IMG/VR virus record: IMGVR_UViG_3300049830_000142
Coordinates: 32,001-96,000 of that record
Reading direction: 5' to 3' (one strand)
DNA length: 64,000 bases
Source: a virus
Shown in pieces: positions 2,247-35,324 of the stretch. The position numbers and the translations under genes are program-made. Within the stretch, counting starts at the first letter, position 1. Every line of letters starts with the position of its first letter. The notes under the pieces are model-generated. The model searched no databases. It was not told the origin of the DNA and saw only the letters and a program-made list of their open reading frames with translations.

Positions 2247-2957
2247 TTACTTAGGCATTTGTGGTGGTTTTACTACAGGGCCTGTTGGTGGGTTAGCAAC
2301 TGGAGCTACAGGAGGTTCAACATGTGGAGGAGGCTCAACTGGAGCAGCACCTGGAGCTGGGCTTGCAGAGGTCGGAGCCGGTTCTGCTTTAGGAGGTGTT
2401 CCACCCGCAGGCTTGTTAAACTGACTCATGAAGTTTTGGTTAGTTCCCATAGCACCTAGACCGGCACCACCTAAACCACCAAGCATCATACCCATCATAG
2501 GGTGTTTCATTAGAGCACCGAGCAATAGCCCAATCAATCCACCACCTACACCACCAGTAGCCATGCCGGACAAAGCGTTCGGATTGGATTTTAAGTAACC
2601 GGAAATACCTTCAGGCATCCACTTCTGCCCTTGTAGCCAATTCTGTGCTTCACCCATACCGCCACCAGTCATACCACTCATATAACTGTTAATGCCACCA
2701 AGCAAACCTTCAGCACCAGCCTTCTTATAGAGTTGGTCACGCATCTGGGATAGACGAATCAATTCCATCGCTACTTTAGTTTTGTAGAGAGGATCCTTAG
2801 ATTCTTCGGCTAACTCATCCCAAGCCGCTGCCCATTTCTCAACGATGTCATCCGCCTCTTTAATGTAGCCCCTCAAAAATGGAATATCGCAGCCGTGTTC
2901 AGCTGCTACTTTAAGGAAGCCTTCCTCAAATTGAATGTACTCTGCTGTCTTGATCAT
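2247..2957 (-). CDS. K-x-A leader protein with Gly zipper and Pro-rich tail
   Basis: FEEGFLKVAA leader; GGVGGGLIGLLLG...MLGGLGGAGLG; PAPGAAPVEPPP tail. Confidence 0.8.
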   Translation of the reverse strand: MIKTAEYIQFEEGFLKVAAEHGCDIPFLRGYIKEADDIVEKWAAAWDELAEESKDPLYKTKVAMELIRLSQMRDQLYKKAGAEGLLGGINSYMSGMTGGGMGEAQNWLQGQKWMPEGISGYLKSNPNALSGMATGGVGGGLIGLLLGALMKHPMMGMMLGGLGGAGLGAMGTNQNFMSQFNKPAGGTPPKAEPAPTSASPAPGAAPVEPPPHVEPPVAPVANPPTGPVVKPPQMPK

Positions 2958-2992
2958 AGTTATATGTTATCTTAAATTATTCTTGCTGCCTA
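2958..2992 (-). promoter_or_regulatory. sigma70-like promoter, leaderless
   Basis: TAGGCA-N17-TAACAT-N6-ATG(2957). Confidence 0.55.
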
Positions 2993-2999
2993 GCTTAAA

Positions 3000-4085
3000 T
3001 TAGTTCCAACCCATGGTGTCGTAAATACCAGGTATTTCTTGCGTAGGTGCTGGTTTAGGCTCCTGGTAAACAGGTTCCTTGATCCCTAGCTCTTTGATCT
3101 TAGCCATGTATTCTTGGTAAGCTCGGTCATTCAGATGCTTGTAGACTGGAGTAGCTAGATCACCAGCACCTGCATTGTTTTTCCAGAAATGAGTGTTACC
3201 ACCTAAAGCAGCCCAACCTGAAGGACTAGTCATAGCTTGCTGAGCTTGAGCGCCAGTATTACTTCTATACCAGCTATACAAATTGTCTAGGCTAGAGTTA
3301 CGAGTCTCAGGATTCATACTCTTGATACCTTCCCTGTTATTCTCTAACCAAGCTGCGTTACCACCGGATTCGTTTACAAAGTCTTGTGCACTTTGAGTTC
3401 CGTGGTTAAGTGCAACCTGACCTGCGGTACCCACGGCTGTTGCTGCTAAAGCTGGACCACCTAACAACATACTTGCCGCTCTACCTCCAACCACTTCAGG
3501 AGCGGCGGTAGCGGCTCCTCTTAACAGACTCTTTCCTAAGATAGGATTACTTGCTGCTGAGGTTAGACCTTTCTGCAACATGTTTTTACCTAGCGTAGGA
3601 ACAGAGCCGAGGAGTTGAGAACCTGAGTCAAGAGCACCACCACCAAATTGTAAAGCTTTGTAACCAGCACCTGCCTGGTTATTAGGATCAAGGGCATCTG
3701 ACATCATGCTTAATCCATTTACTCCTAACATACCACGGTTTAGCCAAGGAGCGACTTTAGAGACACCTGGTAAAGCTTTCATAGAGTTAGCCGCTGCCCA
3801 AGGAACCATTAGCTTCTCTGCACCTTGGTTAGCAAGCTGTGTAGTCTTACCCATAACTGAGTCGGATGGGGCTTCACTGAAATCTGTAGGCTTAGGATCG
3901 TAAGGAGCTTTTGGCATTCCTTTGTTAGCCATAGCATTCAAACCATAACCAGCTAAGCCCAGACCACCAGCCATAGCACCCATTCCTAACGGAGTGGAGT
4001 ACCATGGTTTCTTTTTTTGGGGTTCTACGTTTGCCTGTTTATTCAGCTCAAACAATATACCTTGGTAGAAAGCCGTGTTATTCAT
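3000..4085 (-). CDS. Gly/Ala-rich K-x-A protein, putative ejection/internal protein
   Basis: AFYQGILFELNKQA leader; several Gly/Ala-rich hydrophobic segments. Confidence 0.8.
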   Translation of the reverse strand: MNNTAFYQGILFELNKQANVEPQKKKPWYSTPLGMGAMAGGLGLAGYGLNAMANKGMPKAPYDPKPTDFSEAPSDSVMGKTTQLANQGAEKLMVPWAAANSMKALPGVSKVAPWLNRGMLGVNGLSMMSDALDPNNQAGAGYKALQFGGGALDSGSQLLGSVPTLGKNMLQKGLTSAASNPILGKSLLRGAATAAPEVVGGRAASMLLGGPALAATAVGTAGQVALNHGTQSAQDFVNESGGNAAWLENNREGIKSMNPETRNSSLDNLYSWYRSNTGAQAQQAMTSPSGWAALGGNTHFWKNNAGAGDLATPVYKHLNDRAYQEYMAKIKELGIKEPVYQEPKPAPTQEIPGIYDTMGWN

Positions 4086-4891
4086 GAACGCAATACGTGT
4101 AATGCAACTGCTGACTTAAGCTCTTTATACTTAGTTTCTAGCTCTGGTGGCAAGTTATCAGCGAATTGGATTAGTTCCTTGATTCGATAGTACCATCTGT
4201 CGCCAAGCATAGCTCTTAACGTCATTCTAAAGGTTTCGTCACTTAATTGCAAGCCCTCAACTATCTTCTTTAATCTACGTCTATAACTGTTGGTGTACTG
4301 ATCTATTGTCATACATTTGCCTTGAGTCGGTAATTTCCAGGAATAGAAGAAACGGATATACTTATCTCTGGCTTGTCTAGATAATGGGATATTGCCGATC
4401 AAGTAGTACATATAGGCGTCTTGAGTCTTACGTACTGGTGTCATGAAGATTCGTCCTAAGCCCAGTTCTTCTCCGATAGCCATAAGCTGCTCATTAGATG
4501 TACGCCAAGATTCAGGCAAGGAGTCTTCGTACTTAGCTTTGTATTGTCGGTGGAAGTCGAGGTCAGCTCTCTTCTTAGTTTTGCAATATAACTTGTAATA
4601 GAACTCAGATTGGTCAAAGGCTATCCAATCGAAGGACAAGCTCATCTCAGGCATTTCTACGGCTACGTGAGCGTGCATCTTTCCTTCATCGGCTCTAGTC
4701 ACGACATATACGCCTTTAGGATATAGCAGCTTCAATGTTGAATGTAACTTTGTGATCTTATCACCAAACGCTTTGCTGTCGTAACTTTCCTTTCTAACAG
4801 CCGTGATTAGTATATCACCGATCTGGGCTGGACAGGAAAGTCCCGTGAAGGCTGTTTTTAATTTTTCGACATACTCTTTCCTGTTGTACAT
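4082..4891 (-). CDS. divergent HUH endonuclease (rolling-circle Rep-like)
   Basis: GKMHAHVAV (HUH motif II) after YVVTR; GLGRIFMTPVRKTQDAYMYYL resembles the motif III region. Confidence 0.6.
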   Translation of the reverse strand: MYNRKEYVEKLKTAFTGLSCPAQIGDILITAVRKESYDSKAFGDKITKLHSTLKLLYPKGVYVVTRADEGKMHAHVAVEMPEMSLSFDWIAFDQSEFYYKLYCKTKKRADLDFHRQYKAKYEDSLPESWRTSNEQLMAIGEELGLGRIFMTPVRKTQDAYMYYLIGNIPLSRQARDKYIRFFYSWKLPTQGKCMTIDQYTNSYRRRLKKIVEGLQLSDETFRMTLRAMLGDRWYYRIKELIQFADNLPPELETKYKELKSAVALHVLRS

Positions 4892-4927
4892 GATTGGTTA
4901 ATATACGCTATCTGTTTTTGTTGTCAA
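4892..4927 (-). promoter_or_regulatory. sigma70-like promoter
   Basis: TTGACA-N16-TATATT-N8-ATG(4891). Confidence 0.7.
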
Positions 4928-4939
4928 ATTCTAATAGCT

Positions 4940-4969
4940 AAAAAAAAGGAAAACGGGTAAGGTTTTCCT
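4940..4969 (-). terminator. intrinsic terminator ending the leftward paralog operon
   Basis: 8-bp stem AGGAAAAC/GTTTTCCT followed by a T run on minus. Confidence 0.75.
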
Positions 4970-5003
4970 AGTTAGGTTCTCGGCATTGGGAAGTGCAGAG
5001 AGC

Positions 5004-5339
5004 TTAGAGCAGAAGCTGCCTAAGCAAGTCGTCAGAACTATCGGCTTCACCGGTTCTCTTCTTTATTCCTTTTAGGTGTTTGATAACACCCGACATCGGA
5101 CTAAACATGAGATCATCAGGATAATTCCATCTCTTAGCATTCTCAGCATGCCTAATACGGAATGCTGGGTCTACTATGAGCTGGGTTAGCTTGAGGAAAT
5201 CATCACGAGTCCAACAGCTGCCTTTTACACTTAGGTTCTCTAAAGTGTAATTGTTCAGTTGTTGGATGAGTTTTAGTTTAGTAAGAGAGTCAGAATTAAA
5301 GAGGAGAGTAGTGTTAAGTTTAGGAGTGGTCTTGGCCAT
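5004..5339 (-). CDS. hypothetical protein, weak paralog of the two upstream genes
   Basis: Start moved to MAKTTPK (5339) because 5341-5475 is a separate gene; LTKLKLIQQL and DDLLRQLL motifs. Confidence 0.7.
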   Translation of the reverse strand: MAKTTPKLNTTLLFNSDSLTKLKLIQQLNNYTLENLSVKGSCWTRDDFLKLTQLIVDPAFRIRHAENAKRWNYPDDLMFSPMSGVIKHLKGIKKRTGEADSSDDLLRQLLL

Positions 5340-5340
5340 G

Positions 5341-5475
5341 TTAGATGTCGTCGAATACGTGTTTGTCTCCCGTAGCATCCTTTTCAGAATACACAGGTCT
5401 TTTGGAGCCGAAGAAGTAGAGACATAGATAGACTATGACTACGACGGCGATAGTGATAACCAGTATTGTTTTCAT
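5341..5475 (-). CDS. 44-aa single-pass membrane protein (not in ORF track)
   Basis: MKTILVITIAVVVIVYLCLYFFGSKRP...; ATGA overlap with upstream stop. Confidence 0.75.
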   Translation of the reverse strand: MKTILVITIAVVVIVYLCLYFFGSKRPVYSEKDATGDKHVFDDI

Positions 5476-5843
5476 TTCATCAATTGTTTGATTAGTTGTA
5501 GATCGTCTAGGCTAATAGACAATCTTAGTTGTTCAGTGCGAGAGTTGTTGTGATAATAAGTAGCGCAGTAATCTTGGACAACCATGCATTCTTTGATAGT
5601 GTTGCATTGCTTCAGCTTAGTTAAGAAGCGTACCATAGCTAGTCCTCGACCGTCAGGTATCTCAAAGGCCCAGGAGGCAGCTTTAGGATCCATTATGAAC
5701 GCGTTTAGTCTCAAGAAGTCATACAGGATGCTCCAGCTATACAAGAAGCTCTGAGAAGCTTTGGTGACAGCATGGATAGTCCTAAGCTTCATCTCAGGAC
5801 TAAGATTCTGGATGTACTCAATGTTGAAGGTTTCGTTGTTCAT
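5472..5843 (-). CDS. hypothetical protein, paralog family
   Basis: FNIEYIQNLSPEMKLRTIHAVTK; RFLTKLKQ. Confidence 0.75.
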   Translation of the reverse strand: MNNETFNIEYIQNLSPEMKLRTIHAVTKASQSFLYSWSILYDFLRLNAFIMDPKAASWAFEIPDGRGLAMVRFLTKLKQCNTIKECMVVQDYCATYYHNNSRTEQLRLSISLDDLQLIKQLMK

Positions 5844-6270
5844 CGGTTAGGATTATGGTTTGAAGACGTTGCAGATCTATCTCTGAAGGAAAGATGTATG
5901 TGAGCTGGGCTTTCTCCCATTCCTGGTCCTTAGAGACGGCTTTGAGATCCTTAGCTCTCTTTAGTTGTCGGAGCTTGATTAGGAAGCGATTGCCTTGTAA
6001 TGAGTCGTCTAATGTTATTCCATTAGGATCGTCATAGAAGTCCTGAGCATCTCTACTATTGAAATCATCCTCATCATCAAAAGAGTAGGTACGGATGTCA
6101 GAGTCAGGAGTGGAAAGAGCTCTGATAAGGTTTAGACATGAGGAATAGGCAGTATGGGTATTGATGTAACTGTCTATGGAACTCAGTTTGGTTAGGGTGC
6201 TGATAAGTCTCATTCTTTCATCAAAGGAAAGGGACTTGATAGAGGGGATATTGAAGAATGGTTTTGGCAT
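5818..6270 (-). CDS. hypothetical protein, paralog family
   Basis: FNIPSIKSLSFDERMRLISTLTK; RFLIKLRQ. Confidence 0.75.
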   Translation of the reverse strand: MPKPFFNIPSIKSLSFDERMRLISTLTKLSSIDSYINTHTAYSSCLNLIRALSTPDSDIRTYSFDDEDDFNSRDAQDFYDDPNGITLDDSLQGNRFLIKLRQLKRAKDLKAVSKDQEWEKAQLTYIFPSEIDLQRLQTIILTDEQRNLQH

Positions 6271-6349
6271 GAGATTAGTACTGGGAAGGGGAATGTGGTA
6301 ATAAAGGTAAAGACGAATCCTCTACTACTAATATCTAAAAAATTGGACT

Positions 6350-6565
6350 TATACGACTCATCACCTCTCCCAACGACTGGGTAAGCAACCATTGCTGGTC
6401 GCCTACCCTTTATCGTCGGGATACTTGGTTAGACTGAGGAACCGTAGCAGGAGATGGTGGACAGAGGTTTTGACACCCCCGCCCACCAATCCCTTCTGCA
6501 ACGCAGAACTCAAGGCTTGCGCCGAGCTCTGCTAGGAGGTCTAACCAAGGACTGTGAGGACTCCC
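6350..6565 (-). ncRNA. candidate structured non-coding RNA, unassigned family
   Basis: Nested helices incl. perfect 11-bp 6424-6434/6539-6549 and 13-bp hairpin 6379-6408; two GCAA tetraloops and G-U pairs on minus. Confidence 0.65.
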
Positions 6566-6573
6566 CGGTAAAT

Positions 6574-6729
6574 TTACTTCGCAGAAGGAGTTACCGTATG
6601 TGCCGTATGGGTCTTGATGATCCCAGGCTGCGCGTCGTTTTGGGGGTTCAGATTGCCCGGATTACGAATAACCCAGCCACCGGCGAACCCACACAGGAGC
6701 ATTATTGAGGCGATAACCGTGAATTTCAT
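6574..6729 (-). CDS. 51-aa protein with N-terminal hydrophobic segment (not in ORF track)
   Basis: MKFTVIASIMLLCGFAGGWVIRNPG...SAK*. Confidence 0.6.
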   Translation of the reverse strand: MKFTVIASIMLLCGFAGGWVIRNPGNLNPQNDAQPGIIKTHTAHTVTPSAK

Positions 6730-6779
6730 GGTCTTAATATTTTCTTACATTGTTTATGTTGCAGTTGGCAGAATACCTT

Positions 6780-6854
6780 CCCCCGGGCTTGTGAAGGCCC
6801 AGAATACTCTGTCAAGACATTATACCGTGTATTAGCCTAGTTCTGGCCCGGGGG
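6780..6854. repeat. imperfect inverted repeat
   Basis: CCCCCGGGC (6780-6788)/GCCCGGGGG (6846-6854) with inner CCAGAA/TTCTGG. Confidence 0.6.
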
Positions 6855-6969
6855 TGTCTAAACCACATATATGTACGCGATAGGCGATATACCCCTCCCC
6901 CTAAGCTTATAATCGGAAATCAAGGTATAATGAATTGAGAAGGGCTTTTATAGCCTAGAAAATTAAAGT

Positions 6970-7406: not shown

Positions 7407-7430
7407 ACAACAACCAAAAAAACTAAACTT

Positions 7431-7781: not shown

Positions 7782-7785
7782 ACAA

Positions 7786-7815
7786 TTGGAAGGATGGCTG
7801 ACACCATCCTTCCAA
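7786..7815. other. perfect 12-bp intergenic hairpin (terminator or mRNA processing/stability site)
   Basis: TTGGAAGGATGG-ctgaca-CCATCCTTCCAA. Confidence 0.6.
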
Positions 7816-13889: not shown

Positions 13890-15696
13890 AGCTAAGAGGA
13901 TTCCTAGACCAGTAGTTCTGATCTCCCTCAGTCATCATGTGGAGGATCTCGTCATTCATCTGCTCTTTACGATTAGCCAAAGCTCTGATGTATTGATCAA
14001 CACCACCCGGCTGTTTATTAAACGTCATTCTATCCCAGAAAGAAGGCTGTGGTTGGGCTAAGTAACGTTGCACTAGTAGATTCTGTTTATCGGCTGGCAA
14101 GTCGTCATGAGAGTGGAAACGAGCACCTCTACCAATGATCTGCTTTTCCTTAGCTACATTAAAGTGTGGGTCAAGCATCTGGATTAATCTAGTACCTCTA
14201 AGATCCAATCCTTCTGCACCAGCTGAGCTAATTAGCAAAGCCCTTATCTTATTAGCATTGTAATCCCTGACCATCTGCTCACGTTGTGCTGGGTTAACAG
14301 CACCTGAGAACTCGCCATAAGGAATGTTGTTCTTTTGCAACAGCTGTTCATAAGGCTTTAGACCACTCTGCAAATAGTTACTATAGACCACACCTTTATA
14401 ACTAGGGTCTTTAGCCATCTGTTGTTTAAGGAAACGGAAAGCATTGTCAATCTTAGGCTGCTGTAACTCATTCTTTCTAGTAGTGAAACCAGAGGTAGTA
14501 TTACTAACCTGTCTCACACCTCCTAAGAATGCTCGCATAGGCTCGAGCTCACCTTTACCTGGGGGCAAACCATTCCTGACTTTCCATCTCACCCACCAAG
14601 GAGCTTTACCCATGATAGAGTTGTAGATGTCTTGTTGATGCTGACCCATAGGCACAGCAACTTCTTTTTCAGTTACACTAGGGTAGCCTTCGTGTGGCGC
14701 GGCGTAGTAGTCTACGTACTTATCTAAAACTTTCTTCAACTCATCTCTGTTTTGAAGATGTTGTTCAACACCAGGCTTAACACCCATGAGCTTTCCTAAG
14801 ATACCTGGACTGACTTCCTCTTGCTTAAAGTACTTTTGATTGAAAGCTCCGGGAGAAGAAGGCAACACATCTTTACCAGCCGCTAAGTTAACTATGTTAG
14901 CTAAATCTGCTGGATTGTTATAGAGTGGTGTGCCTGAGAGTAGTAGACGTTTCTTAGGATGAGTCCTCTGAAGAGCTTGGTAAAGCTGGCTATTAGGATT
15001 ACGAGCTTTCTGCACTTCATCTACAATCTGTAATCCTTTATCATACATCGGAGTCTTGAGAGTGGGGTTCGCCAATCTCTGCTGACTTACGATGTTGACG
15101 TCTCTCGGAACACTACCTGTCCACTTCCTAAGCTCTTTACGATAGTTTTCTTGTAGAGCTGCTGGAACAACTACGTCAGTCGGCATCTTCAAAGACTTAT
15201 AGGCTTCGATACTAGACTTAGTTTTACCTGAACCAGTAGAATGAAATAGTACTAAACCTCTAGTACCTGGCTGATTAATCTTACGGACTACTCTAGCTTG
15301 TTGAGGAGGCATGTTAGCATCCCTCTCCTTGTCAAACTCAGTCCAGTCAGCTTTCTTTATAGCTCTATTACTTAACTGACGGTTACCTCCAATTACGGGG
15401 TAACCTTGGCGTCTCAATTTTTTAGCTAACAGTTCTTCAGCCTTCTCAGCTTCAAAGAAACTTAGTCTATTCTTATGAAATTCAGGTCTTAGCTTCAGAC
15501 CATGATTCTTCACCCAAGTGTTAGCTTTCAAGCCTTCCTTATGTTTCTTAAACCTTTCTTCAGCAGAAAGGCCGGACATACCTACGTAGAGCGGAGGTTT
15601 GTCTGGGTTATAGCTAGGATTAAGATCTCGTACTTTTTTTCTGTCTAGTACTTTCTTATCCAACTCAACCACATAAACGTTGTGAATTCCTGCCAT
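13888..15696 (-). CDS. GIY-YIG-like nuclease domain fused to SNF2/NPH-I-like SF2 helicase
   Basis: NVYVVEL...LYVGMSG...ERF N-domain; HSTGSGKT, DEVQ, SGTP, GAEGLDLRG, QIIGRGAR helicase motifs. Confidence 0.85.
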   Translation of the reverse strand: MAGIHNVYVVELDKKVLDRKKVRDLNPSYNPDKPPLYVGMSGLSAEERFKKHKEGLKANTWVKNHGLKLRPEFHKNRLSFFEAEKAEELLAKKLRRQGYPVIGGNRQLSNRAIKKADWTEFDKERDANMPPQQARVVRKINQPGTRGLVLFHSTGSGKTKSSIEAYKSLKMPTDVVVPAALQENYRKELRKWTGSVPRDVNIVSQQRLANPTLKTPMYDKGLQIVDEVQKARNPNSQLYQALQRTHPKKRLLLSGTPLYNNPADLANIVNLAAGKDVLPSSPGAFNQKYFKQEEVSPGILGKLMGVKPGVEQHLQNRDELKKVLDKYVDYYAAPHEGYPSVTEKEVAVPMGQHQQDIYNSIMGKAPWWVRWKVRNGLPPGKGELEPMRAFLGGVRQVSNTTSGFTTRKNELQQPKIDNAFRFLKQQMAKDPSYKGVVYSNYLQSGLKPYEQLLQKNNIPYGEFSGAVNPAQREQMVRDYNANKIRALLISSAGAEGLDLRGTRLIQMLDPHFNVAKEKQIIGRGARFHSHDDLPADKQNLLVQRYLAQPQPSFWDRMTFNKQPGGVDQYIRALANRKEQMNDEILHMMTEGDQNYWSRNPLS

Positions 15697-16391
15697 TATT
15701 GTTTAGCCATATTTTGGCTTTTCAAAAATTGTTCTATCAGACTAATCCTACCTGCATTTCTCTCAGGTGTTTGTTGGTTAACTAAAGAATTTTGCATTTC
15801 TTTTGCTGTATTCTCATAGTTGTTTGCCTTTAATGATTCTAGTAGTTTTGGCCACTTTGTCAAACTACCTGTTTGATAGCCTAAGTCAACTACTGAATCT
15901 TTGACTGGTTGTGGAGTTGAACCCCAATTATTACCAACCAACTTCCCAATACTAGCATCTACATTGTTAACTTTATTAGTCAAGGCGCTGGCAGCTTCAG
16001 GTTCAGTTACCTTACCTAACTGCAGCATTTTAGGATCAGTTGAGCCATAGCCTATTGTCTTATGTCCTAAAGTGTCATTGTAAGGTTCACTACGAAATCC
16101 TTCTTCCTGTTTTAACCTAGCATAAATATCAGGGCTTGAAGCAACTCTTGGTGCTGTAGACACGGGTGGAATAGAGACAGGTTGTGCTCTATGTAATGGT
16201 GTCATAGTACCATCTGAATGCCTGGTAACCGGATTCTGGATAGACTTGGCAACGTCACCGGCTATCCTAGTTTGCGCAGGTTGTAATCCTACTTTAGGCG
16301 CTTGCTGCACATTTACTCCTGTACTAACTGAATTAGTCAGGACAGCTGCTTTGATCATGCCAGTCAAGAATGCATTAAAGACTTTACTCAT
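15696..16391 (-). CDS. GH24 (T4-type) lysozyme with N-terminal KAA leader
   Basis: EEGFRSEPYNDTLGHKTIGYG catalytic E-D-T pattern; AFLTGMIKAA leader. Confidence 0.85.
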   Translation of the reverse strand: MSKVFNAFLTGMIKAAVLTNSVSTGVNVQQAPKVGLQPAQTRIAGDVAKSIQNPVTRHSDGTMTPLHRAQPVSIPPVSTAPRVASSPDIYARLKQEEGFRSEPYNDTLGHKTIGYGSTDPKMLQLGKVTEPEAASALTNKVNNVDASIGKLVGNNWGSTPQPVKDSVVDLGYQTGSLTKWPKLLESLKANNYENTAKEMQNSLVNQQTPERNAGRISLIEQFLKSQNMAKQ

Positions 16392-20219: not shown

Positions 20220-20849
20220 ATGCCAACATACGGACAAATTCTACAAGATTTAGATTGCTCACTTACTAAGCGAGCTTTCATTCCTTCTCCAACTGGTGGA
20301 GGCGGTGGACAACCTGGACAGCAACCACAAGGTGGACAGCCTCCTGGTCAAGGCGATCCAGCACAGCAACAGGAGATGCAACAATTTGCACAACAAATAC
20401 AACAACAGCAAGCGGCTCAAGGTGGGCAAGGCGGTCAACAACCACAAGGTCAGCCAGGTCAAGGTGACCCTTCTCAAGGCAAGCCTCAAGATCCTAATGC
20501 ACCTCCTGGAGGCGATCTATCTCCTAAGGGTATGGCTCAGAGTTTGAAGAACACTGCAGTAACAGTTACTGTAGCGGACTTGCTCGACCTCGTATCTGGT
20601 GGCAAGGCAAGTCAAGCACATCTCAAGACTGAATCAATGAAAGTCCAACACGGCTTTAAGCACAGGGAGATGTTGCAGAAGGAACAGGACAAACAGCAGC
20701 AGAAAGAACAGGAACGCCAGCAGCAGGCTCAGATGCAGGCTCAACAGCAGCAAGGCATGATGGGCGGCGGTATTTATGGCGGCGGCCCAATGGACGGGCA
20801 AAATGCTCCTGGACAACCAGGTCAACCACCTCAACAAGGAGGCATGTAA
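20220..20849 (+). CDS. Gln/Gly/Pro-rich low-complexity protein with K-x-A leader
   Basis: LTKRAF then GQP/QQ tracts. Confidence 0.8.
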   Translation: MPTYGQILQDLDCSLTKRAFIPSPTGGGGGQPGQQPQGGQPPGQGDPAQQQEMQQFAQQIQQQQAAQGGQGGQQPQGQPGQGDPSQGKPQDPNAPPGGDLSPKGMAQSLKNTAVTVTVADLLDLVSGGKASQAHLKTESMKVQHGFKHREMLQKEQDKQQQKEQERQQQAQMQAQQQQGMMGGGIYGGGPMDGQNAPGQPGQPPQQGGM

Positions 20850-20852: not shown

Positions 20853-21479
20853 ATGGATAAGCTAGAACAAGGATACATCGACGGATTTGTTAAAGCTGCA
20901 AATGCACTTAGCGCAGGTATTGTGGCCGGCGTTAAACAACCTATGGAAAGCGCTGAGTCAGCTATAGCTAGGCTACAAAGTCAGAAAACAAAAGATTTCG
21001 TTATGCCTAATAGGAAAAACTTGCTAGGCCAACCTTTAAGTGGTGGTCCTGGATTAAATGCTCCTAACGGTATCAAAGATAAGTTGCATAGCCTATGGAA
21101 TGACCCTAAGAGCAATACTATAGGTGACATGTCATTAAGGAAAGCTACTGGATTAGGTGCAGGATTAGGTGCAGGAACAATTGCAGCTAGCCAAGGTGCA
21201 GGTGCTCTAACCTCAGGTATGGGTGGACATCCTTCTGACTTAGCCCAACGTACTCAAGAAGCTACGCAAGGTCCTTCTATTGATCCTAGTGGTCTTTATG
21301 AAATGCTAAAGCAACATCTGTCTAAACATGAAGTAGGTTACGGTGTAGGTGGTGCAGCTCTTGGTTTAGGTGGCTTAGGCTACTACTTGAGCAAGCATAA
21401 AAATAAAAAGAAAATAGACGAAGGTCAAATACCTTTTAGCTCAGGCGAAGACGAACCAGGCGTAGAGACCAATGAATAA
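20853..21479 (+). CDS. KAA-leader Gly-zipper membrane protein
   Basis: GYIDGFVKAA; GLGAGLGAG; GVGGAALGLGGLGYY followed by a Lys cluster. Confidence 0.8.
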   Translation: MDKLEQGYIDGFVKAANALSAGIVAGVKQPMESAESAIARLQSQKTKDFVMPNRKNLLGQPLSGGPGLNAPNGIKDKLHSLWNDPKSNTIGDMSLRKATGLGAGLGAGTIAASQGAGALTSGMGGHPSDLAQRTQEATQGPSIDPSGLYEMLKQHLSKHEVGYGVGGAALGLGGLGYYLSKHKNKKKIDEGQIPFSSGEDEPGVETNE

Positions 21480-25223: not shown

Positions 25224-27470
25224 ATGAACAGCCAGATTAAATTAGCTGCTGGAGATCAAGAGTTTGAGCAGGCCTTTTTTCAATTAGCCTATGACAAACT
25301 ACAAGGAAAACTAAGCAACCTAGTACCTTTCTTAGTAGGATTTCAGCTAGTCAAGAAGTCCGACAATGATACCAAAGCAGTCGGTGTATTCGGTTTTAAG
25401 AGCAACAATGGACAGATCCTATTTGTTCCTGCCTTCTTCGTGAATGGCAAGATCAAGGAGCTGGAAATCCTCTATAGCCGTAACAACAACCAGTTTTATC
25501 CGCTCAATGAAGATTTCGCTGAGCTCTTTTTGAAAGACGATGTTACCGGTATTGGTACTCCTAGTAACGAGAGAAAAGAAGATGTACAACGCGATATACC
25601 TAGCGCTAACATGCGCAAGATTATCTTCCCTCCTAGGACAGGTCGTGTTAGCTATGCTGAAGCCAAGGACTTGGATGAAAAGAATCCTGAAGTATTGTCT
25701 AAGGCTGCTGACTGTTTGTTAAGCAAGAAAAGCTATAACAAAGGTCCAGAGCTAATCGACTTCGTCAAATCAGCAGACAACAAGGTCAAGGAAGCGTTCT
25801 TCTTTATGTTAAACAAGAATGCTGAGTTTGCAGACGCTGTGCGCTCATTCTATCCTGACTCAGCTATCGCAGATTCTCTAACCGTAGCTCCTGTAATTAA
25901 GGAAGCCAAAGCTAAGAAGCTCAAAGTATATGACTTTGAAGCTGACACTGATCTCGACAAACTCCCAGCCTCTAATAAGAAAGAGTTAGTGACCAAAGGT
26001 GTTACTATCGTAGATAATAGGTTAGACGAGGATACTTCTAAGCTAGGTATCTTCAAAGTCAAAGAGTCATTTTCAAATCCTACTCAAACTGGATTCTATC
26101 CTTATATCACTGAGTTAGGAACTATCCGTTACGGTCTAGTATTAACAAATCTTTCAGCTTTCATGGGTGGCTATAACTATCCTAGAGCTATTGTAGTAGA
26201 CTTGCAATCTCCTCGCAAAGGCCAGGCTTACGAAGTTGAGTTATCAGGCATCTTCATCAAAGATCAGATCCACGTTAAAGATCTTTCAGACGCAATGAAG
26301 TTGTTAGAGGAGCCGGCTGAAGCATTGCCTAGTTACGAAGACTATATTCTCATTAACGAGAATTTGCATACTACAGAACCTTTCAGGATTATCGAGAACT
26401 ACAAAGACAGTTCAGGTGTCCGCAGAATCAAGATTGAACCTTCTTGGATGTGCGACGCTTCTCCTCGTCCTAATAGCTTTGATCCTAAGACTAAGGGTAA
26501 GCAGAACGAAGTAGTATTGGTTTTGACTAAGAAGGTTGGTGACAGACTTGAGCATCGTAACCATGCAGTCTACGTCCCTAAAAGTTTCAAGCTATTGAAG
26601 CTACACCTTAGCGACTACTACAGCCCTGAGATAGACTACAATCTCCCTAAAGATGAACGTGATAGGAAGCGTAGTACTATTGAAAAGGACAAGGCTGAAA
26701 TCAAAGCTGGTGCTCCTGGTGGCTTAAGCAGCCTAAATAGTTTCCTACACTCCAACAATACGTTCCCACTCACCATTCATACCAATGGTTCTGAGTACTT
26801 CCTTAACGTAAGTGGTGCTAAGGCTAAGTTTGAAAATCCTCTCGAAGCTAAGATCGCAATGGTCACTGAACTTGGTTTGAGAGAGAAGGATGCTGAAGCT
26901 GCTATCACTGATCTTATACCTAACAAAAAGAGAGACGGTATCGTTAAAGTTTCAGTAACTGGTGAAAATATTCTCAATTTACAAGACGAAACACCTGAGA
27001 ACAACGAGTTTGGACAACCCACTTACTACGGTACTCCTTGGGTAGACCAACATGACGCTTCAGATGGCTACGCTAAAGACCCGACAGAACAAGGTTTAGG
27101 TGTTAAACCAGATGACGCATCACTAAGCACTACTATTAGTCGTGCTGTTAACTTAGCACAACAAGGTCAGAAGGATGTGTTTGATACACAGACTATTGGT
27201 GCTTTGGCTAAGTATACAGACAGCAATAACAAGGTCTTGGAGTATGTACCTAGCTTCGTGTCTTCACTAGATAAACTTGGTCGTATGTTGTTTCTAGCTT
27301 ACTGGGACACTGATACTTTTGAAGACATGTATGGTAAAGACGAATTACCTGAGCTCATTGAGCTAGTCAAAAGCGTATTCAACAATTTAGGAGATCTCGT
27401 CATCTTCTTGAAACGTAAAGTTCCTGACTTGTCTATCAACGACAATGAACAGAGTAAGAACGACATCTAA
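25224..27470 (+). CDS. large hypothetical head-region protein
   Basis: 748 aa, IKLAA leader; no family recognised. Confidence 0.8.
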   Translation: MNSQIKLAAGDQEFEQAFFQLAYDKLQGKLSNLVPFLVGFQLVKKSDNDTKAVGVFGFKSNNGQILFVPAFFVNGKIKELEILYSRNNNQFYPLNEDFAELFLKDDVTGIGTPSNERKEDVQRDIPSANMRKIIFPPRTGRVSYAEAKDLDEKNPEVLSKAADCLLSKKSYNKGPELIDFVKSADNKVKEAFFFMLNKNAEFADAVRSFYPDSAIADSLTVAPVIKEAKAKKLKVYDFEADTDLDKLPASNKKELVTKGVTIVDNRLDEDTSKLGIFKVKESFSNPTQTGFYPYITELGTIRYGLVLTNLSAFMGGYNYPRAIVVDLQSPRKGQAYEVELSGIFIKDQIHVKDLSDAMKLLEEPAEALPSYEDYILINENLHTTEPFRIIENYKDSSGVRRIKIEPSWMCDASPRPNSFDPKTKGKQNEVVLVLTKKVGDRLEHRNHAVYVPKSFKLLKLHLSDYYSPEIDYNLPKDERDRKRSTIEKDKAEIKAGAPGGLSSLNSFLHSNNTFPLTIHTNGSEYFLNVSGAKAKFENPLEAKIAMVTELGLREKDAEAAITDLIPNKKRDGIVKVSVTGENILNLQDETPENNEFGQPTYYGTPWVDQHDASDGYAKDPTEQGLGVKPDDASLSTTISRAVNLAQQGQKDVFDTQTIGALAKYTDSNNKVLEYVPSFVSSLDKLGRMLFLAYWDTDTFEDMYGKDELPELIELVKSVFNNLGDLVIFLKRKVPDLSINDNEQSKNDI

Positions 27471-27473
27471 TTT

Positions 27474-27776
27474 ATGACAAAATTACAAGAAGCTTTTTTG
27501 AATGGGTTTATCAAGGCCGCTGCAGGTGCTGGACCAGCCCCAATGCCTCCGCTAGGCTCACCAAATCAGCAACCAGGTCAACCACAGCCTATGCCGCAAC
27601 AAGGACAACCTGCACAGATGCCACAACAAGGTGGAATTACACCTATGCAGCAACCACAGCAAGCGGGCGGAAACAAAATGTTCTATCAGCTATTGAGTCA
27701 ATTTAAGCAGCAGAATCCTGTACCACAAGCGCCGCAAGCAGTTCCAAACCAACATTTGCAGCCTCAGATGGTCTAA
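27474..27776 (+). CDS. KAA-leader Gln/Pro/Met-rich low-complexity protein
   Basis: AFLNGFIKAA then QP-rich tract. Confidence 0.75.
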   Translation: MTKLQEAFLNGFIKAAAGAGPAPMPPLGSPNQQPGQPQPMPQQGQPAQMPQQGGITPMQQPQQAGGNKMFYQLLSQFKQQNPVPQAPQAVPNQHLQPQMV

Positions 27777-30310: not shown

Positions 30311-30312
30311 TT

Positions 30313-30678
30313 ATGGCAAAGCTACGTATTTTACAGACAATAGTTAACGAGAACTTTAACTTCGTCTTTACTATCGACACTGATAGCATTGGCGATGATG
30401 ACTTTGCTCGTGTAAAGAAGTTTGGTGCACCTAGTATTAACTTTGGCGGTGCCTTCACTAACGGTACTCAGTCATATACTTTGCCTGATGCGTTCTACGA
30501 TTTCCCTGGTGACTTCCCTGTAAATGTATCATTCTCAGGTACTACACCATTTAACACTGCGGTAGAAGCTAACCTAGATTTGTACAGGACAACGATGACA
30601 ACTAGAATCACTACTGCTATCACTACACTAAGAGGTTTGTCAGATGGCTTCACTGGTGAATTTATTACCAATATTTAA
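30313..30678 (+). CDS. hypothetical protein, probably structural
   Basis: Thr/Phe-rich beta-type ORF in head region. Confidence 0.75.
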   Translation: MAKLRILQTIVNENFNFVFTIDTDSIGDDDFARVKKFGAPSINFGGAFTNGTQSYTLPDAFYDFPGDFPVNVSFSGTTPFNTAVEANLDLYRTTMTTRITTAITTLRGLSDGFTGEFITNI

Positions 30679-30680
30679 TT

Positions 30681-31322
30681 ATGCCAATGGATCAATCAAC
30701 ACAACATTTACTAAGTGGCTTACTAACTGACGCTGGCATTGGTGCTGGTGTAGGTGCGGCAGGTATGGGTGCTGCTGAAGCACTTTCACCTGAACAAGAA
30801 GGTCACAAGAAGAGCATTCTAAAAAGCATGCTATTAGGTGGTGCAATGGGAGGTCTTACTGGTGCTGGTACAAGAGCTTTTGCCGATACTGTAAGCCCCG
30901 ATCTTCAACACGATCCTCGTACTATGCTAGCTTCAATGTTTGAAAACAAACAGGCTCCTGCTCCAGAAGAACACAGTATCATCGGTAACCTAGGTAATGC
31001 GGCAGCTGGACATCCGGCTATTGCAGGTTTAACTGGTGGTGTATTAGGCGGTGGTCTATCTGCTTATCGTAAGAGCGGTATTAACAAAGAAATGGTTGCA
31101 GGTGGTCAGGTGCCTAAGAGTTTACAAGACTACATCAACACTCCAAGAGGTTTACGCTTAGGGCGTTTCCCAACTATGCATCCAGCATCTCACGGTGCTT
31201 TAGCAGGTGTAGGTACTTATGCTGTAAGCAAGCTTCTAAACCAGAATGAAGTAAACAAAGATTTGTACAGCAAGGTAAACAATCCTAATGCTTTGAGTGA
31301 ACACCTCAGTCAACCACAGTAA
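30681..31322 (+). CDS. Gly-zipper hairpin membrane protein
   Basis: GIGAGVGAAG..EQEGHKKSILKSMLLGGAMGG. Confidence 0.8.
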   Translation: MPMDQSTQHLLSGLLTDAGIGAGVGAAGMGAAEALSPEQEGHKKSILKSMLLGGAMGGLTGAGTRAFADTVSPDLQHDPRTMLASMFENKQAPAPEEHSIIGNLGNAAAGHPAIAGLTGGVLGGGLSAYRKSGINKEMVAGGQVPKSLQDYINTPRGLRLGRFPTMHPASHGALAGVGTYAVSKLLNQNEVNKDLYSKVNNPNALSEHLSQPQ

Positions 31323-31325
31323 CCT

Positions 31326-32687
31326 ATGATAAAGTTCACCAGCAACAACGACTGGGTATTCAATTGTGAGAGCGTAGCAATACTGCGTGATTTCTCCCGT
31401 GACCTAGTTAAAAGGGCCAGTGCTAAGAATCTTGCGAACTACGAAAAAGATCCTAAGCAAGAGCACCTTCACATTATTGCTGTAGGAGCTTACGAAGGAA
31501 CTGGTTTCAACCGTAATGGTGACGCTTTCCTAGAAGAGGACTGCAAAAAGAACCATCACTATTTTTCTAAGAGTAACAGAGCTGTCCATCGCCACCACAA
31601 GAACAAGCCTAACGATCCTAAGTATGGTAATATCAAAGCTGCATCATACAACGATAAGATGCGCAGAATTGAGTTAGTTGTAGGATTGGACAAAGGCGCT
31701 TGCGCAGACATTTTACATGAGCAGGAGACGACTGGTAACACTAACTGGTCTATGGCTTCTAAGCAAGCCGAAGACATCTGTTCATGGTGTGGTCATCATG
31801 CCAAGACTGACAATGACCGTTGTAACCACTTGCCTACTAACATAGGTGAGTTGAATAAGAAGGGTGAGATGTGCGGTATGATCAATCCAGACCCTAGGTG
31901 GTTTGAGATTAGTTATGTGCGCAGACCTGCTGACAGAATTGGTATGAGCTTAGGAAAGGTAGCTTCTGAGATCACTTACAAGTCAGCCGCTTCTTATCTT
32001 AACATCTATGGTGATCTTTATATCCCGGACGATGTACTACTAAGCAAGAAAGCTAGTGACAAACGTGAGCTTTTGAGCAAGCTAGCTGAGATAGAAAAGC
32101 ATATTGATGCAATATCTCATAGCAATCCAGACAACTCTAAAGATAAGTTCATCAAAGATCATGGACACAAGATTAAGCATTCTCCTAATATTGCTCCTGA
32201 CAATATTGAGTCCCTCAGAACGATGGAGCCTAGCATGGTCCTTAAGACACTTGCTGACCATGGTATCGTATTCAGCCCAGAAGATTTTAGCCGTTACCTG
32301 TTCGACAACCAAGTAAAGCCTGGTCATGTAGAAGGTATGAAGAGTCACTTACCACACATCTTCAATCATCTACATAACGAAGACGCTGGCAAAGCAGTGA
32401 ACGATGAGAAGTTTGATCCTGGAGCCGGTACTCCTCCAGCTGAACTAAAGAACTTGGGCGGCAAACTACATGAAGGACATTCTTTACATGAAGGACCTGC
32501 TATTAGACGTGTCATGCACATTGGTGGAGGTAGTCTATCTCCTCATCACGAAGCAACTAAACAAGCAGCTGACCTAGAATTTGCTAAGCAGTACGCTACA
32601 TATAAGTTGGCTGCCCTTAGCTATATGAACGAACAGGGTAAGCTAACTGATGATGTAATCTTAAACGCAGTATTGCAGAACCAGTAA
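31326..32687 (+). CDS. prohead maturation protease with C-terminal extension
   Basis: FNRNGDAF, HRHHKN, WSMAS, CSWC...CNH, FEISYVRRPAD; upstream of scaffold/capsid. Confidence 0.75.
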   Translation: MIKFTSNNDWVFNCESVAILRDFSRDLVKRASAKNLANYEKDPKQEHLHIIAVGAYEGTGFNRNGDAFLEEDCKKNHHYFSKSNRAVHRHHKNKPNDPKYGNIKAASYNDKMRRIELVVGLDKGACADILHEQETTGNTNWSMASKQAEDICSWCGHHAKTDNDRCNHLPTNIGELNKKGEMCGMINPDPRWFEISYVRRPADRIGMSLGKVASEITYKSAASYLNIYGDLYIPDDVLLSKKASDKRELLSKLAEIEKHIDAISHSNPDNSKDKFIKDHGHKIKHSPNIAPDNIESLRTMEPSMVLKTLADHGIVFSPEDFSRYLFDNQVKPGHVEGMKSHLPHIFNHLHNEDAGKAVNDEKFDPGAGTPPAELKNLGGKLHEGHSLHEGPAIRRVMHIGGGSLSPHHEATKQAADLEFAKQYATYKLAALSYMNEQGKLTDDVILNAVLQNQ

Positions 32688-32688
32688 T

Positions 32689-33102
32689 ATGACACGCACT
32701 TATCAGACGATGAACCTAAACAACATAACCGAAAAGTTAGAGTTAGCTGAGATGGTTCAAAATAATGCGTTACTCGCTTCTAGCGCTGGTATTTGGCAAC
32801 TTAATCTAACTACTGACAATGTAATCTGGGATAACCGAATGCTTGAGATCTTTGAGTTTGACGAAGATTATTTCAAAAACAGTTATCACGGTTTTGAGGA
32901 ACTAATTTTACCTGAATATCATGAAGAGATTAGAGCTAAGTTATTGGCATGTCAAACCGGTATTGCTCCATTTTGCTCAGTCTATAAAGTAAAGTCAAAG
33001 AACTCCAAAGGTTACAAGACTGTTTTAGGTAAGGGCAATATTGTAATAGAAGAAGATGAGACTAGGATGATGCACGGTATCTGTGTCGAAATCTTGGAAT
33101 AA
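32689..33102 (+). CDS. stand-alone PAS domain protein (PAS_3-like)
   Basis: SAGIWQLNLTTDNVIWDNRMLEIF...LILPEY...YKVK...YKTVLGKG...MHGICVEI. Confidence 0.8.
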   Translation: MTRTYQTMNLNNITEKLELAEMVQNNALLASSAGIWQLNLTTDNVIWDNRMLEIFEFDEDYFKNSYHGFEELILPEYHEEIRAKLLACQTGIAPFCSVYKVKSKNSKGYKTVLGKGNIVIEEDETRMMHGICVEILE

Positions 33103-33106
33103 TTTT

Positions 33107-33355
33107 ATGCTTAAGTCAACTATGAGAGTGTTGCGTAGGTATCCGTTAGTTACTGCGGTACTAGACTATTTTCTTGCTAAACTGCAAGTCATTATCATTT
33201 CAGTTGTAGTGGCTCTCATTACCTTAGTCTATCAGCATCACGCTACACATAACCAGATCTGGAATGAGACTGGTAATCATTTTCAAGACTTAGTAAAGAT
33301 CGTTCAGCAACAGGATTTGGTAATCAAAGAGCTAACGAATAACATATATGAATAA
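33107..33355 (+). CDS. single-pass membrane/coiled-coil protein, holin-like candidate
   Basis: LQVIIISVVVALITLVY then amphipathic coil; ATG at 33107 preferred over GTG 33083. Confidence 0.6.
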   Translation: MLKSTMRVLRRYPLVTAVLDYFLAKLQVIIISVVVALITLVYQHHATHNQIWNETGNHFQDLVKIVQQQDLVIKELTNNIYE

Positions 33356-33770
33356 GGAAGCATTTGATCGTGGCTTTGTTAAAGCTGCTCTCGATAACGG
33401 CATAAATATTTTGCAGGCCACTGAACTACTAAAGTTAGCAGACGGCAATCAAGCGTTGATGACAGGTATTGGTGGATTAGCCGGTGGCTTAGGCGGAGGC
33501 CTAGGAGGTGCACTAAAAGGTTTTGGAATGGGTGCGCCAATAGGTGCTATTTATGGTGGACTGCGTGAGCATGAAAAACCTGAAAATCAGAGGCATACGG
33601 TTAAGGCTATGTTAGATAAAGGATTACTTGGTGGTAGCTTAGGAGCAGGCGCAGGTGGATTAGTCGGCGGAGGTATGGGAGCTATAGGTGGTGCAGCTGC
33701 TGGTTACAATATGGGAAACTTTCAGCAGACACTCGAACAGCTAGGACAATTACCTGTGTTAAATAAATAA
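33348..33770 (+). CDS. KAA-leader Gly-zipper protein
   Basis: AFDRGFVKAA; long GxxxG repeats. Confidence 0.8.
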   Translation: MNKEAFDRGFVKAALDNGINILQATELLKLADGNQALMTGIGGLAGGLGGGLGGALKGFGMGAPIGAIYGGLREHEKPENQRHTVKAMLDKGLLGGSLGAGAGGLVGGGMGAIGGAAAGYNMGNFQQTLEQLGQLPVLNK

Positions 33771-33772
33771 TT

Positions 33773-34441
33773 ATGTCAGAACTGAAATGTAAAAAGTTTG
33801 AATGCTTAGAGTGTAAAAAATCTTTTCAAAAGATAGATTATTTAGGAACGGTGAAATACTGTTCTAGACTTTGTGGTAATATAGCTAAAGCAAAAAATCG
33901 TAATAAAAAAGCTACTGTAAAATGCAAAGAATGCCGCAAACCATTTTTAGCTCAAGAAGGTAGGCTTAAGAGTGGAAAAGGTAAGTTTTGTTCCACCGGA
34001 TGTTTTAGGACATACCAAAATAAAAAGGTACAGTTGCAATGTAAGAATTGCGATAAACTTTACAAAAGAAGTCCTAGTATATCTAAGGTATCTAGATTCT
34101 GCTGTCGTAGGTGCTGTACAATTTATACGCTTAAGAGCATGCCGAACAAAGAAACATCCATAGAAATTAAGATAAGAAAATTTCTAGATGAATCAAAGAT
34201 ACCGTATAAAGCACAGGTAGGTATAGGTAATATCACTGTAGCAGATTTTGTTTCTGGTAAAAATGTTTTTATGGCAGATGGAGACTATTGGCATAATTTA
34301 CCTAGGCGTCAATACCGTGATAAAAAAATCAATGACAAACTAACTAAATTAGGTTATTCTGTACATAGATTTTGGGAACACGACATACATAACAATTTTG
34401 ATCAAGTTAAGGAAAGGATAATGCATGCCAGCTGTCAGTAA
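33773..34441 (+). CDS. Vsr/DUF559-like endonuclease with N-terminal Cys repeats, homing-endonuclease-like
   Basis: Repeated CxxC...CSxxC; ADF..DGDYWH..RDKKIND..GYSVHRFWEHDI; AT-rich. Confidence 0.8.
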   Translation: MSELKCKKFECLECKKSFQKIDYLGTVKYCSRLCGNIAKAKNRNKKATVKCKECRKPFLAQEGRLKSGKGKFCSTGCFRTYQNKKVQLQCKNCDKLYKRSPSISKVSRFCCRRCCTIYTLKSMPNKETSIEIKIRKFLDESKIPYKAQVGIGNITVADFVSGKNVFMADGDYWHNLPRRQYRDKKINDKLTKLGYSVHRFWEHDIHNNFDQVKERIMHASCQ

Positions 34442-35324
34442 AAGTCAACAAAGGTTATTCGGCATGATTCATGCATATCAAACCGGTAAACTAAAAAAGG
34501 CTCCTTCTAAGATCAAGCATGTCGCATCGAATATTTCTATGACAAGCGCAACACATTTTGCAGAGACTAAGCATAAGGGCTTACGTAATAAAGTGAAGAA
34601 GATCGCAAACAATATGGATTTGGTACTAAATCATCCTAGTGCACCAAAATTATCTAAACGCAGACATAACATGTTAAATGACTATGGTAGATATCTTAAC
34701 GGCGAACTAGAAAATGATCCTACAGAAAAAAAGGCAGGTTGGTACGAAGACTTCCGTAGAAACGAAGTTAACCATGTAGTTGGCCACTACTCTCCTAAAG
34801 AATTAAAAGACATGAAAGGACTTGACGTTAAGCATGGTAGTCATCCGGACGAAGCCGAAGACAAACAATTAATTAAGGAAGTTGTGAAACCATCAGCAAT
34901 TAAGAAACAAGCATTTGAAAGAGGATTCATCAAAGCAGCCACTGACTTAGGTGTTAATCCATTACTAGCAGTAAATTTATTGAAGAAGGCATGGAACCTA
35001 CCCGAAGCCGCAAGCGATATAACAGGCATTGCAGATCCAGCTAAACTACAAGCACTTGAAATAGGTGCTGCAGGTCAAGCTGTGGGCGGTGCAGGTTTAG
35101 GTGGACTAGCTGGTGCAGGTTTAGGTGGACTAGCTGGTTACTTTGGCGGTCGCAATAAAGAACATCCGGAACAAGATCATTCAATGCGCGATATGCTATT
35201 GGGCGGTCTAGGTGGTGCCGGTCTTGGTGCGGCTGGTGGTGGACTGTATGGAGGAATGCACGGTGCTAAGCCTTTGCAGGAGTACATTCAAAGTCATCCA
35301 CGCATTATGGATCCACAACAGTAA
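34425..35324 (+). CDS. mosaic K-x-A protein: MPAxSKxQQ domain, acidic linker, KAA/Gly-zipper module
   Basis: MPAVSKSQQRLFG; KQAFERGFIKAA; GGLAGAGLGG..RDMLLGGLGGAG. Confidence 0.8.
   Translation: MPAVSKSQQRLFGMIHAYQTGKLKKAPSKIKHVASNISMTSATHFAETKHKGLRNKVKKIANNMDLVLNHPSAPKLSKRRHNMLNDYGRYLNGELENDPTEKKAGWYEDFRRNEVNHVVGHYSPKELKDMKGLDVKHGSHPDEAEDKQLIKEVVKPSAIKKQAFERGFIKAATDLGVNPLLAVNLLKKAWNLPEAASDITGIADPAKLQALEIGAAGQAVGGAGLGGLAGAGLGGLAGYFGGRNKEHPEQDHSMRDMLLGGLGGAGLGAAGGGLYGGMHGAKPLQEYIQSHPRIMDPQQ

Follow-up and report, generated by a model that had tools for sequence, protein, structure and literature searches.

A ten-residue leader recurs on proteins encoded in the head region of a 64,000-nucleotide stretch of viral DNA (IMG/VR record IMGVR_UViG_3300049830_000142, positions 32,001 to 96,000), referred to here as the window. 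Seven head-region proteins carry the leader helix, six with one unit, either whole or as helix 1, and the seventh, a scaffold-like protein (35388-36218), with three. The leader is helix 1 of a two-helix module of about 32 residues, FxxGFhKxA...GhxxxxAxxLLKxA, which hundreds of small proteins carry in a large clade of uncultured phages that is distant kin of Salmonella phage Arash. It may be a docking module resembling the capsid-targeting sequence of phage T4, clipped at its K-x-A end by a protease of the T4 gp21 fold. The probability of this reading is put at about 0.5.

Leader motif and the proteins that carry it

An earlier note on this DNA had listed six sites of a shared leader and proposed that it is a portable tag for loading unrelated proteins into the prohead. 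All six sites lie in frame in real open reading frames (ORFs), five at the N-terminus of the carrier and one internally (Table 1). The strict pattern [AG][FY]xxG[FM]hKAA has five matches where composition predicts 0.0002, and 0 of 2000 shuffles gave any, which rules out a chance origin. The motif was found neither in non-coding frames nor elsewhere in the 134.6-kb contig from which the window is taken. Profile scans of the contig and its relatives, suggested earlier as a check, gave matches well above reversed controls. A profile built without window sequences (relatives-only profile) recovered five of the six leaders at 9.8-25 bits, against a maximum of 6.5 bits in the control, the reversed proteome. 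A two-helix profile recovered all six together with the three units of 35388-36218, at a reversed-proteome noise of 2.1 bits. Both profiles support the sixth site, FEEGFLKVAA in ORF 2247-2957, where a degenerate second copy (GYIKEA) follows 17 residues after GFLKVA. Among the looser variants suggested earlier, the one in 35388 is upheld, with units at 17.8, 9.7 and 5.7 bits, and those at 3000 and 1054 score at noise level. A literature search for the leader hexapeptides returned nothing relevant.

The lysozyme ORF 15696-16391 consists of the leader, about 75 disordered residues and a domain of glycoside hydrolase family 24 (GH24; PF00959, 50.8 bits against a cut-off of 22.3, E 2.7e-13), and also matches phrog_2083, ‘internal virion lysozyme motif’. 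Relative G001 is syntenic with the window; its capsid protein is 90% identical and the neighbouring head proteins only 40-70%. In the G001 orthologs the leader is 55-73% identical and the rest of the protein 16-45%; for the Q/P-rich protein 27474-27776 the values are 73% and 42%. The leader is also retained in the G001 ortholog of 20853-21479. At the locus beside the SNF2 helicase gene, the window encodes leader, linker and GH24 lysozyme, and G001 encodes the same leader with a Pro-rich linker and an unrelated body. The leader is thus portable, in that one leader stands on unrelated bodies within a head module. It was also claimed that the proteins behind the leader differ completely, which holds for the lysozyme and the Q/P-rich protein. 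Gly-zipper-like tails are shared by the other four carriers (20853, 33348, 34425 and 2247), which may be related to each other. Enzymes are not the typical cargo either: most cargo is small and of low complexity, with the lysozyme as the exception.

In ORF 34425-35324 the 10-mer occupies residues ~163-172, and the module is preceded by an N-terminal part resembling DUF3008 and followed by a Gly-zipper tail. This internal copy looks like the product of a gene fusion, because the equivalent internal position of the G001 ortholog reads ‘MNKEAF...’ and there is a free-standing version of 169 residues (P0004). Several PHROGs without an assigned function match the N-terminal ~65 residues of this ORF (34425-34620, + strand, SKSQQRLFGMIHAYQ..; E 2e-11), and this part is fused upstream of the module-bearing Gly-zipper protein in both the window and G001. 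Homolog searches with 33348 were uninformative: the word-based search with residues 1-40 gave only four candidates and returned the query alone, and the whole-protein search was swamped by Gly-rich words.

Table 1. Leader-bearing, protease, scaffold-like and K-x-A proteins of the window.
Feature	Position	Strand	Details
Lysozyme leader, helix 1 only	16344-16373	-	Residues 7-16 of ORF 15696-16391; two-helix profile 11.0 bits, noise 2.1
Gly-zipper protein leader, helix 1 only	20871-20900	+	208-residue ORF 20853-21479; 9.8 bits (relatives-only profile), 16.9 bits (two-helix profile)
Q/P-rich protein leader, helix 1 only	27492-27521	+	100-residue ORF 27474-27776; 23 bits (relatives-only profile)
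Full two-helix module, N-terminal	33348-33452 (10-mer 33360-33389)	+	140-residue Gly-zipper ORF 33348-33770; 48.2 bits
Internal two-helix module	34902-35009 (10-mer 34911-34940)	+	Residues 160-195 of ORF 34425-35324; 46.5 bits
Two-helix module, N-terminal	2847-2933 (GFLKVA at 2904-2921)	-	ORF 2247-2957; 17.1 bits (relatives-only profile), 14.3 bits (two-helix profile)
Scaffold-like protein	35388-36218	+	Acidic, isoelectric point (pI) 5.0, P/G/Q/A-rich; module units at residues 1-34, 69-98 and 120-145
Predicted prohead protease	31326-32687	+	T4 gp21 / herpes assemblin fold at residues 41-201, disordered linker 204-239, helical C-terminal domain
Major capsid protein	38689-39651	+	Match to Arash gp226, 29% identity, E 8.5e-31
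Head protein, 748 residues	25224-27470	+	Homolog of Arash virion protein gp218; N-terminal K-x-A-A conserved, residues 6-9
Head-module protein, 462 residues	28922-30310	+	N-terminal L-[VI]-K-x-A, residues 7-11, in 17/17 orthologs
Head-module protein, 392 residues	36254-37432	+	K-x-A conserved at residues ~20-22
Head-module protein, 131 residues	37579-37974	+	F-[VIT]-K-x-A, residues 12-16, in 16/16 orthologs

The leader as part of a two-helix module

The 10-mer described in the earlier note is a real motif, but only the first helix of a longer unit. The leader consensus is xxaFhxGFhKAA, with F6, G9 and F10 conserved as strongly as the K and the A. In most relatives a second helix follows the 10-mer in the alignment, and the unit reads xxaFhxGFhK[RA]AxxxGhxxxxAxxLLKxA. 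The lysozyme, 20853 and 27474 keep helix 1 and not helix 2. In alignments of such leader-only forms, information content is no higher than background from the residue after K-x-A onward, the pattern expected of a propeptide that ends at its cleavage site. Structural neighbours of the module in the ESM Atlas are generic two-helix hairpins only, one of them an HHH_6 viral cluster.

A back-translated pattern search of IMG/VR contigs found the same N-terminal leader. Relatives G001, G003 and G004 have 4-7 copies per contig, against 0 in the reversed control, and 21 further loci around the protease gene gave 39 matches at or above 8.8 bits, against a reversed maximum of 2.3. Among 1.84 billion proteins, the module profile matched 808 cluster representatives at E<=1e-3, of which 68 reached E<=1e-10. 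The best matches are acidic proteins of 200-340 residues, with three units separated by Pro/Glu-rich linkers. Single-unit proteins within the best 150 matches nearly always begin with the unit (in the first 10 residues in 54/57). Behind the unit come short tails, rich in Pro and Ala or Gly-zipper-like, and Pfam domains are almost absent; a Pfam census of 64 single-unit proteins gave DUF6321 and a weak ATP-grasp match only.

Two side observations concern the module. In G001, an ORF of 48 residues (L035:1966-2112, - strand, equal to G001 39965-40111) encodes little beyond one two-helix module, and overlaps by 4 nucleotides the start of a gene for 466 residues with LigD_N phosphoesterase and ligase domains (L035:569-1969, - strand). 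In the window, residues 195-211 (IKRANILGLSDQQGTDL) of a protein of 1116 residues (47926-51276, + strand) give a borderline match to the second half of the module, at 6.8 bits against a noise of 2.1.

Scaffold-like protein and prohead protease

The protein 35388-36218 is a candidate scaffolding protein by its gene position between protease and capsid protein, its low pI and its repeats. Its unit 1 aligns with the module at an hhalign probability of 90% (E 1.6e-6). Orthologs in related loci are encoded directly after the protease and have three units each. The positional counterpart in Arash, gp223, is module-like at 11.3 bits and has been detected in virions by mass spectrometry (PMC10585845).

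Modelling indicates that 31326-32687 is a prohead protease of the T4 gp21 fold. Its AF2 model (pLDDT 73) aligns best with T4 gp21 (5jbl_B, VIA-align; Z 9.4, root-mean-square deviation 3.1 Å over 128/164 residues) and second best with the proteases of pseudorabies virus, varicella-zoster virus and herpes simplex virus (Z 6.0-6.7). Residues H91 and S142 are invariant in 22 homologs; they may correspond to T4 His85 and Ser140. The protease is recognised by fold alone: the Pfam Peptidase_S77 and S78 profiles had no match on the contig, phmmer against PDB sequences gave nothing meaningful, and Foldseek alone was weak (E 0.07-0.7). More than 340 homologs were found, on contigs of up to 293 kb and mostly about 180-225 kb. 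Weak sequence relatives are the ‘capsid maturation protease’ of Gordonia phage Pupper and gp19 of phage G, which has been called a head maturation protease (PMC12484599).

The sequence K-x-A-S is near-invariant at three places in the protease, namely residues 29-32 at the end of the disordered N-terminus, and residues 211-214 and 241-244 on either side of the disordered linker. K211-x-A213-S and K241-x-A243-S thereby flank a low-confidence linker of the model and are candidate autocleavage sites, with Ala at P1 and Ser at P1'.

The G001 protease gene (L035:2784-5342, - strand, equal to G001 40783-43341) encodes 852 residues, including an insertion of ~400 residues. The insertion begins with Cys exactly within the conserved motif G-T-G|F-N-R-N-G-D and looks intein-like, and a protease homolog of 776 residues (P0092) matches Pfam PF14890 (intein splicing). 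Also longer in G001 are the SNF2 helicase (951 against 602 residues) and an RNA polymerase subunit (779 against 636 residues).

K-x-A motif in head proteins

The end of the leader is found well beyond the leader itself. The motif h-h-K-x-A, in which h is a hydrophobic residue, occurs 30 times in 13.5 thousand head-region residues and 10 times in 29 thousand residues elsewhere, a 6.5-fold enrichment (P 2e-8). Within the first 30 residues it is present in 10 of 200 proteins, against 2.8 expected, and all ten lie at 381-37974 of the window. The major capsid protein, which is 38689-39651 and not 28922 as suggested earlier, has K26-K-A28-A29 (nucleotides 38764-38775) in its N-terminal arm, where K26, A28 and A29 are invariant in 17 orthologs down to 30% identity. 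Conserved K-x-A also occurs in several other head families (Table 1). Across orthologs, N-terminal K-x-A is absent in the tail and neck families 40328, 40996 and sheath, and absent also in the head-module families 38003, 27786 and 30313. The h-h-K-x-A motif is common to leaders, capsid protein, scaffold-like protein, protease and other head families, and may mark a cleavage site.

The capsid proteins of Arash and Vibrio phage D69 contain [LV]-[VT]-K-E-A-G. The protein encoded after the protease repeats ..V-K-E-A-[SA], with three copies in D69 and two detected in Arash, so the K-x-A code extends to cultured phages. A Q/G/P-rich protein of 209 residues (20220-20849, + strand) has an N-terminal ..K-x-A followed by F-I-P-[SA], conserved in G000, G001 and G004, and may be another family with this signature.

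Contig, relatives and virion context

The viral contig is ~62% complete according to CheckV, and the window encodes split multisubunit RNA polymerase genes. When ~30 head-module proteins were compared with Pfam and PHROGs, almost no matches were obtained, and most structural proteins had none. The closest cultured relative is Arash, with 31% identity in the RNA polymerase. Homolog pairs are 25224-27470 and gp218, 31326-32687 and gp222, and the end of the contig and the portal gp204. A tblastn search with 28922 against cultured phages gave no match, and a related-locus search using 25224 as query gave no relatives.

Mass spectrometry of purified Arash virions detected RNA polymerase subunits, the SNF2 helicase and gp218-gp225, and RNA ligases have also been reported in these virions (PMC10585845). 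The proteins gp218-gp225 are syntenic with the head module of the window, and their detection supports indirectly a location of the tagged proteins in the head. The coverage values listed for these virions (PMC10585845, Table 2) are not credible, with 100% coverage of the 129-residue gp11 from 2 unique peptides. The column is internally inconsistent and is thus unusable for judging N-terminal processing or removal of a tag.

The head module of the window also contains homing-type endonuclease genes, an HNH gene at 33773-34441 (+ strand, phrog_1271) and a GIY-YIG-like gene at 39722-40324 (+ strand). Near leader genes in relatives, proteins of ~117 residues (L036:2084-2434, + strand, in G001; G004 27247-27603) have a classical signal peptide, a conserved ..AIY[LI][AV]EGG.. 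and no Pfam match, and may be secreted wall hydrolases.

Proposed mechanism and alternative explanations

In the proposed mechanism, one unit of the module would allow its carrier to assemble together with scaffold or core within a prohead that is still forming. Docking would work by copying the scaffold’s own repeat, with cargo proteins borrowing one module copy, or helix 1 alone, to enter the core, and would thus do the same job as the T4 capsid-targeting sequence. The protease 31326-32687 would then cut after h-h-K-x-A, freeing the lysozyme, the Gly-zipper proteins and the Q/P-rich protein inside the head and fragmenting the scaffold-like protein. In T4, a capsid-targeting sequence and degradation of the scaffold provide a precedent (PMC5694885).

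Several points weigh against this reading. All characterised prohead proteases of the T4 and phiKZ type cut after Glu (PMC5694885), and the phage branch of these enzymes would gain a new specificity with Ala at P1. In all orthologs of the capsid protein the K-x-A has a Glu no more than two residues away, which leaves room for Glu-specific cutting there, and the AF2 model of the capsid protein (pLDDT 43) is too poor to place K-x-A in the fold. The residue at P1' after K-x-A is highly variable, and a cut at this point would break a folded two-helix unit in two. Invariance of K, A and G could have a purely structural reason. The similarity of the Arash protein to the module is marginal. Finally, the leader is missing from two kinds of protein that Arash has in its virion, the RNA polymerase subunits and the helicase. 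It is therefore neither a universal head-loading signal nor the only route into the head.

A more specific form of the docking reading is possible, although we hold it only tentatively. In it the leader would be a sequence-defined head-loading module that can be transferred between proteins and is copied from the scaffold repeat, and it would be cut by a T4-fold protease that has switched to a herpesvirus-like Ala-P1 specificity, with a herpes-like layout of protease, linker and helical domain and K-x-A-S release sites.

The best-surviving alternative, which we regard as doubtful, is that the module serves permanently, as an assembly or binding domain that the mature proteins keep. It would bind the capsid interior, the core or other copies by helix-helix association over a small-xxx-small face, A-G-A. 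K-x-A would then be structural and the protease would cut after Glu as its relatives do. The two-helix unit does look like a folded hairpin, as the Atlas model matches suggest, and tandem and internal copies exist; the Glu specificity of known T4/phiKZ-type proteases (PMC5694885) and the Glu near the capsid K-x-A also fit. However, leader-only forms keep helix 1 alone and their conservation ends exactly at K-x-A, and K-x-A recurs at the disordered borders of the protease as well as in head families that have it N-terminally but possess no other part of the module. Nor do the lysozyme and the Q/P-rich protein have a Glu placed to release anything.

It is less likely again that K-x-A with hydrophobic residues at P4/P5 is a recognition and cleavage site of propeptides only, FxxGF having no targeting role and other contacts bringing the proteins into the head. 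An N-terminal h-h-K-x-A does occur in head families that have no FxxGF, and the motif is enriched throughout the head region, as this explanation would have it. It does not account for F6, G9 and F10 being conserved as much as the K and the A, for the repetition of the whole unit three times in scaffold-like proteins, or for the nearly constant position of single units at the extreme N-terminus of unrelated small proteins.

A helix-hairpin-helix-like DNA-binding unit, by which internal head proteins would organise or accompany packaged DNA, is very improbable. The spacing G-h-x-x-x-x-A-x-x-L-L resembles the second half of helix-hairpin-helix motifs and one Atlas neighbour is the HHH_6 cluster, but the module has no second hairpin Gly, the triple-unit protein is strongly acidic, helix 1 alone is retained in three proteins and the Atlas matches are generic hairpins.

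Least credible is a membrane-targeting amphipathic helix or signal-anchor-release (SAR) segment, which would make the lysozyme a secreted endolysin: its N-terminus is weakly hydrophobic and many carriers have Gly-zipper tails, but this endolysin, transmembrane or signal-peptide reading was rejected because the Kyte-Doolittle maximum is 1.27 over 19 residues, with no N-terminal window reaching 1.6 and a Lys in the middle, and the same leader also occurs internally, precedes soluble charged segments, is encoded in the head module and is carried by the scaffold-like protein.

Significance and comparison with known systems

To our knowledge, the selection of proteins into the capsids of large phages is understood in detail only for T4, and we know of no consensus tag or scaffold defined for phiKZ-like phages. 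Here a 10-residue consensus, its parent module, a candidate scaffold and a candidate K-x-A cleavage code are readable from sequence across hundreds of protein clusters. Testable predictions follow on the identity of the head cargo, the position of the cuts and the specificity of the protease. If the docking reading is true, the leader would serve throughout a large clade of uncultured phages as a short, programmable tag by which foreign proteins could be packaged in capsids. The protease would be the first phage enzyme of the gp21 type with Ala instead of Glu at P1, and the maturation systems of phages and herpesviruses would be tied closer together.

Cargo-loading peptides of encapsulins are usually C-terminal and have another consensus, with no protease step and a non-viral compartment. 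The likeness lies in a short terminal peptide followed by a flexible Pro/Gly-rich linker and variable cargo, and in a shell of the HK97 fold. The present leader is N-terminal, has a different consensus and a proposed protease step, and would act in a viral head. In phage P22, fusion of the coat-binding helix-loop-helix of the scaffolding protein to another protein suffices for encapsidation. A small helix-loop-helix with basic residues on a scaffold protein is common to both systems. There is no sequence relation to the P22 element, and the unit described here is N-terminal and triplicated, its binding to the capsid protein being hypothetical.

Herpesvirus maturation cleavage follows the consensus (V/L/I)-X-A|S. 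The predicted protease of the window belongs to the same fold superfamily (Z 6-6.7), also with a putative Ala at P1. Herpesvirus assemblin is arranged as protease, R-site, linker and scaffold (PMC4498786). Similarly, K-x-A-S stands here after the protease domain and again past a disordered linker, followed by a helical domain. In contrast to assemblin, the protease is closer to T4 gp21 (Z 9.4), and its cleavage and catalytic triad are putative.

In phiKZ, 201phi2-1 and SPN3US, the gp175/gp245 protease removes propeptides from head and ejection proteins by cutting at (S/A/G)-x-E (PMC5694885, PMC10052503). The phage of the window is likewise large, encodes a multisubunit RNA polymerase of the virion type and a T4-type protease, and has many head proteins. 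In SPN3US, the N-terminal conservation of the diverged paralogs gp53 and gp54 has been read as resembling a capsid-targeting sequence. The propeptides of the phiKZ group are mostly longer than 100 residues and lack a clade-wide consensus, whereas a 10-residue consensus is found here on hundreds of protein clusters, with a putative Ala at P1.

The closest parallel is T4, where the capsid-targeting sequence of IPI-III and Alt is removed by the prohead protease gp21 (Mullaney & Black 1996, summarised in PMC5694885). In both cases a short N-terminal peptide stands on unrelated small proteins encoded in the head region, with a gene for a gp21-fold protease nearby. The motif that ends the cargo leader recurs in the capsid protein and in the scaffold-like protein, and T4 gp22 has several cut sites as the scaffold-like protein has several copies of the motif. 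The leader shows no similarity to MKTYQEFIAE and ends in K-x-A, not [LI]-x-E. No conserved Glu was found before or after the leader consensus in the alignments of relatives, and neither the sequence nor the cleavage residue of the T4 peptide is present. The tag is also, unlike that of T4, part of a two-helix module that is the scaffold-like protein’s own repeat, and we infer its targeting and removal from sequence. The leader system thus probably works like the T4 capsid-targeting sequence, but with a new type of sequence and new parts.

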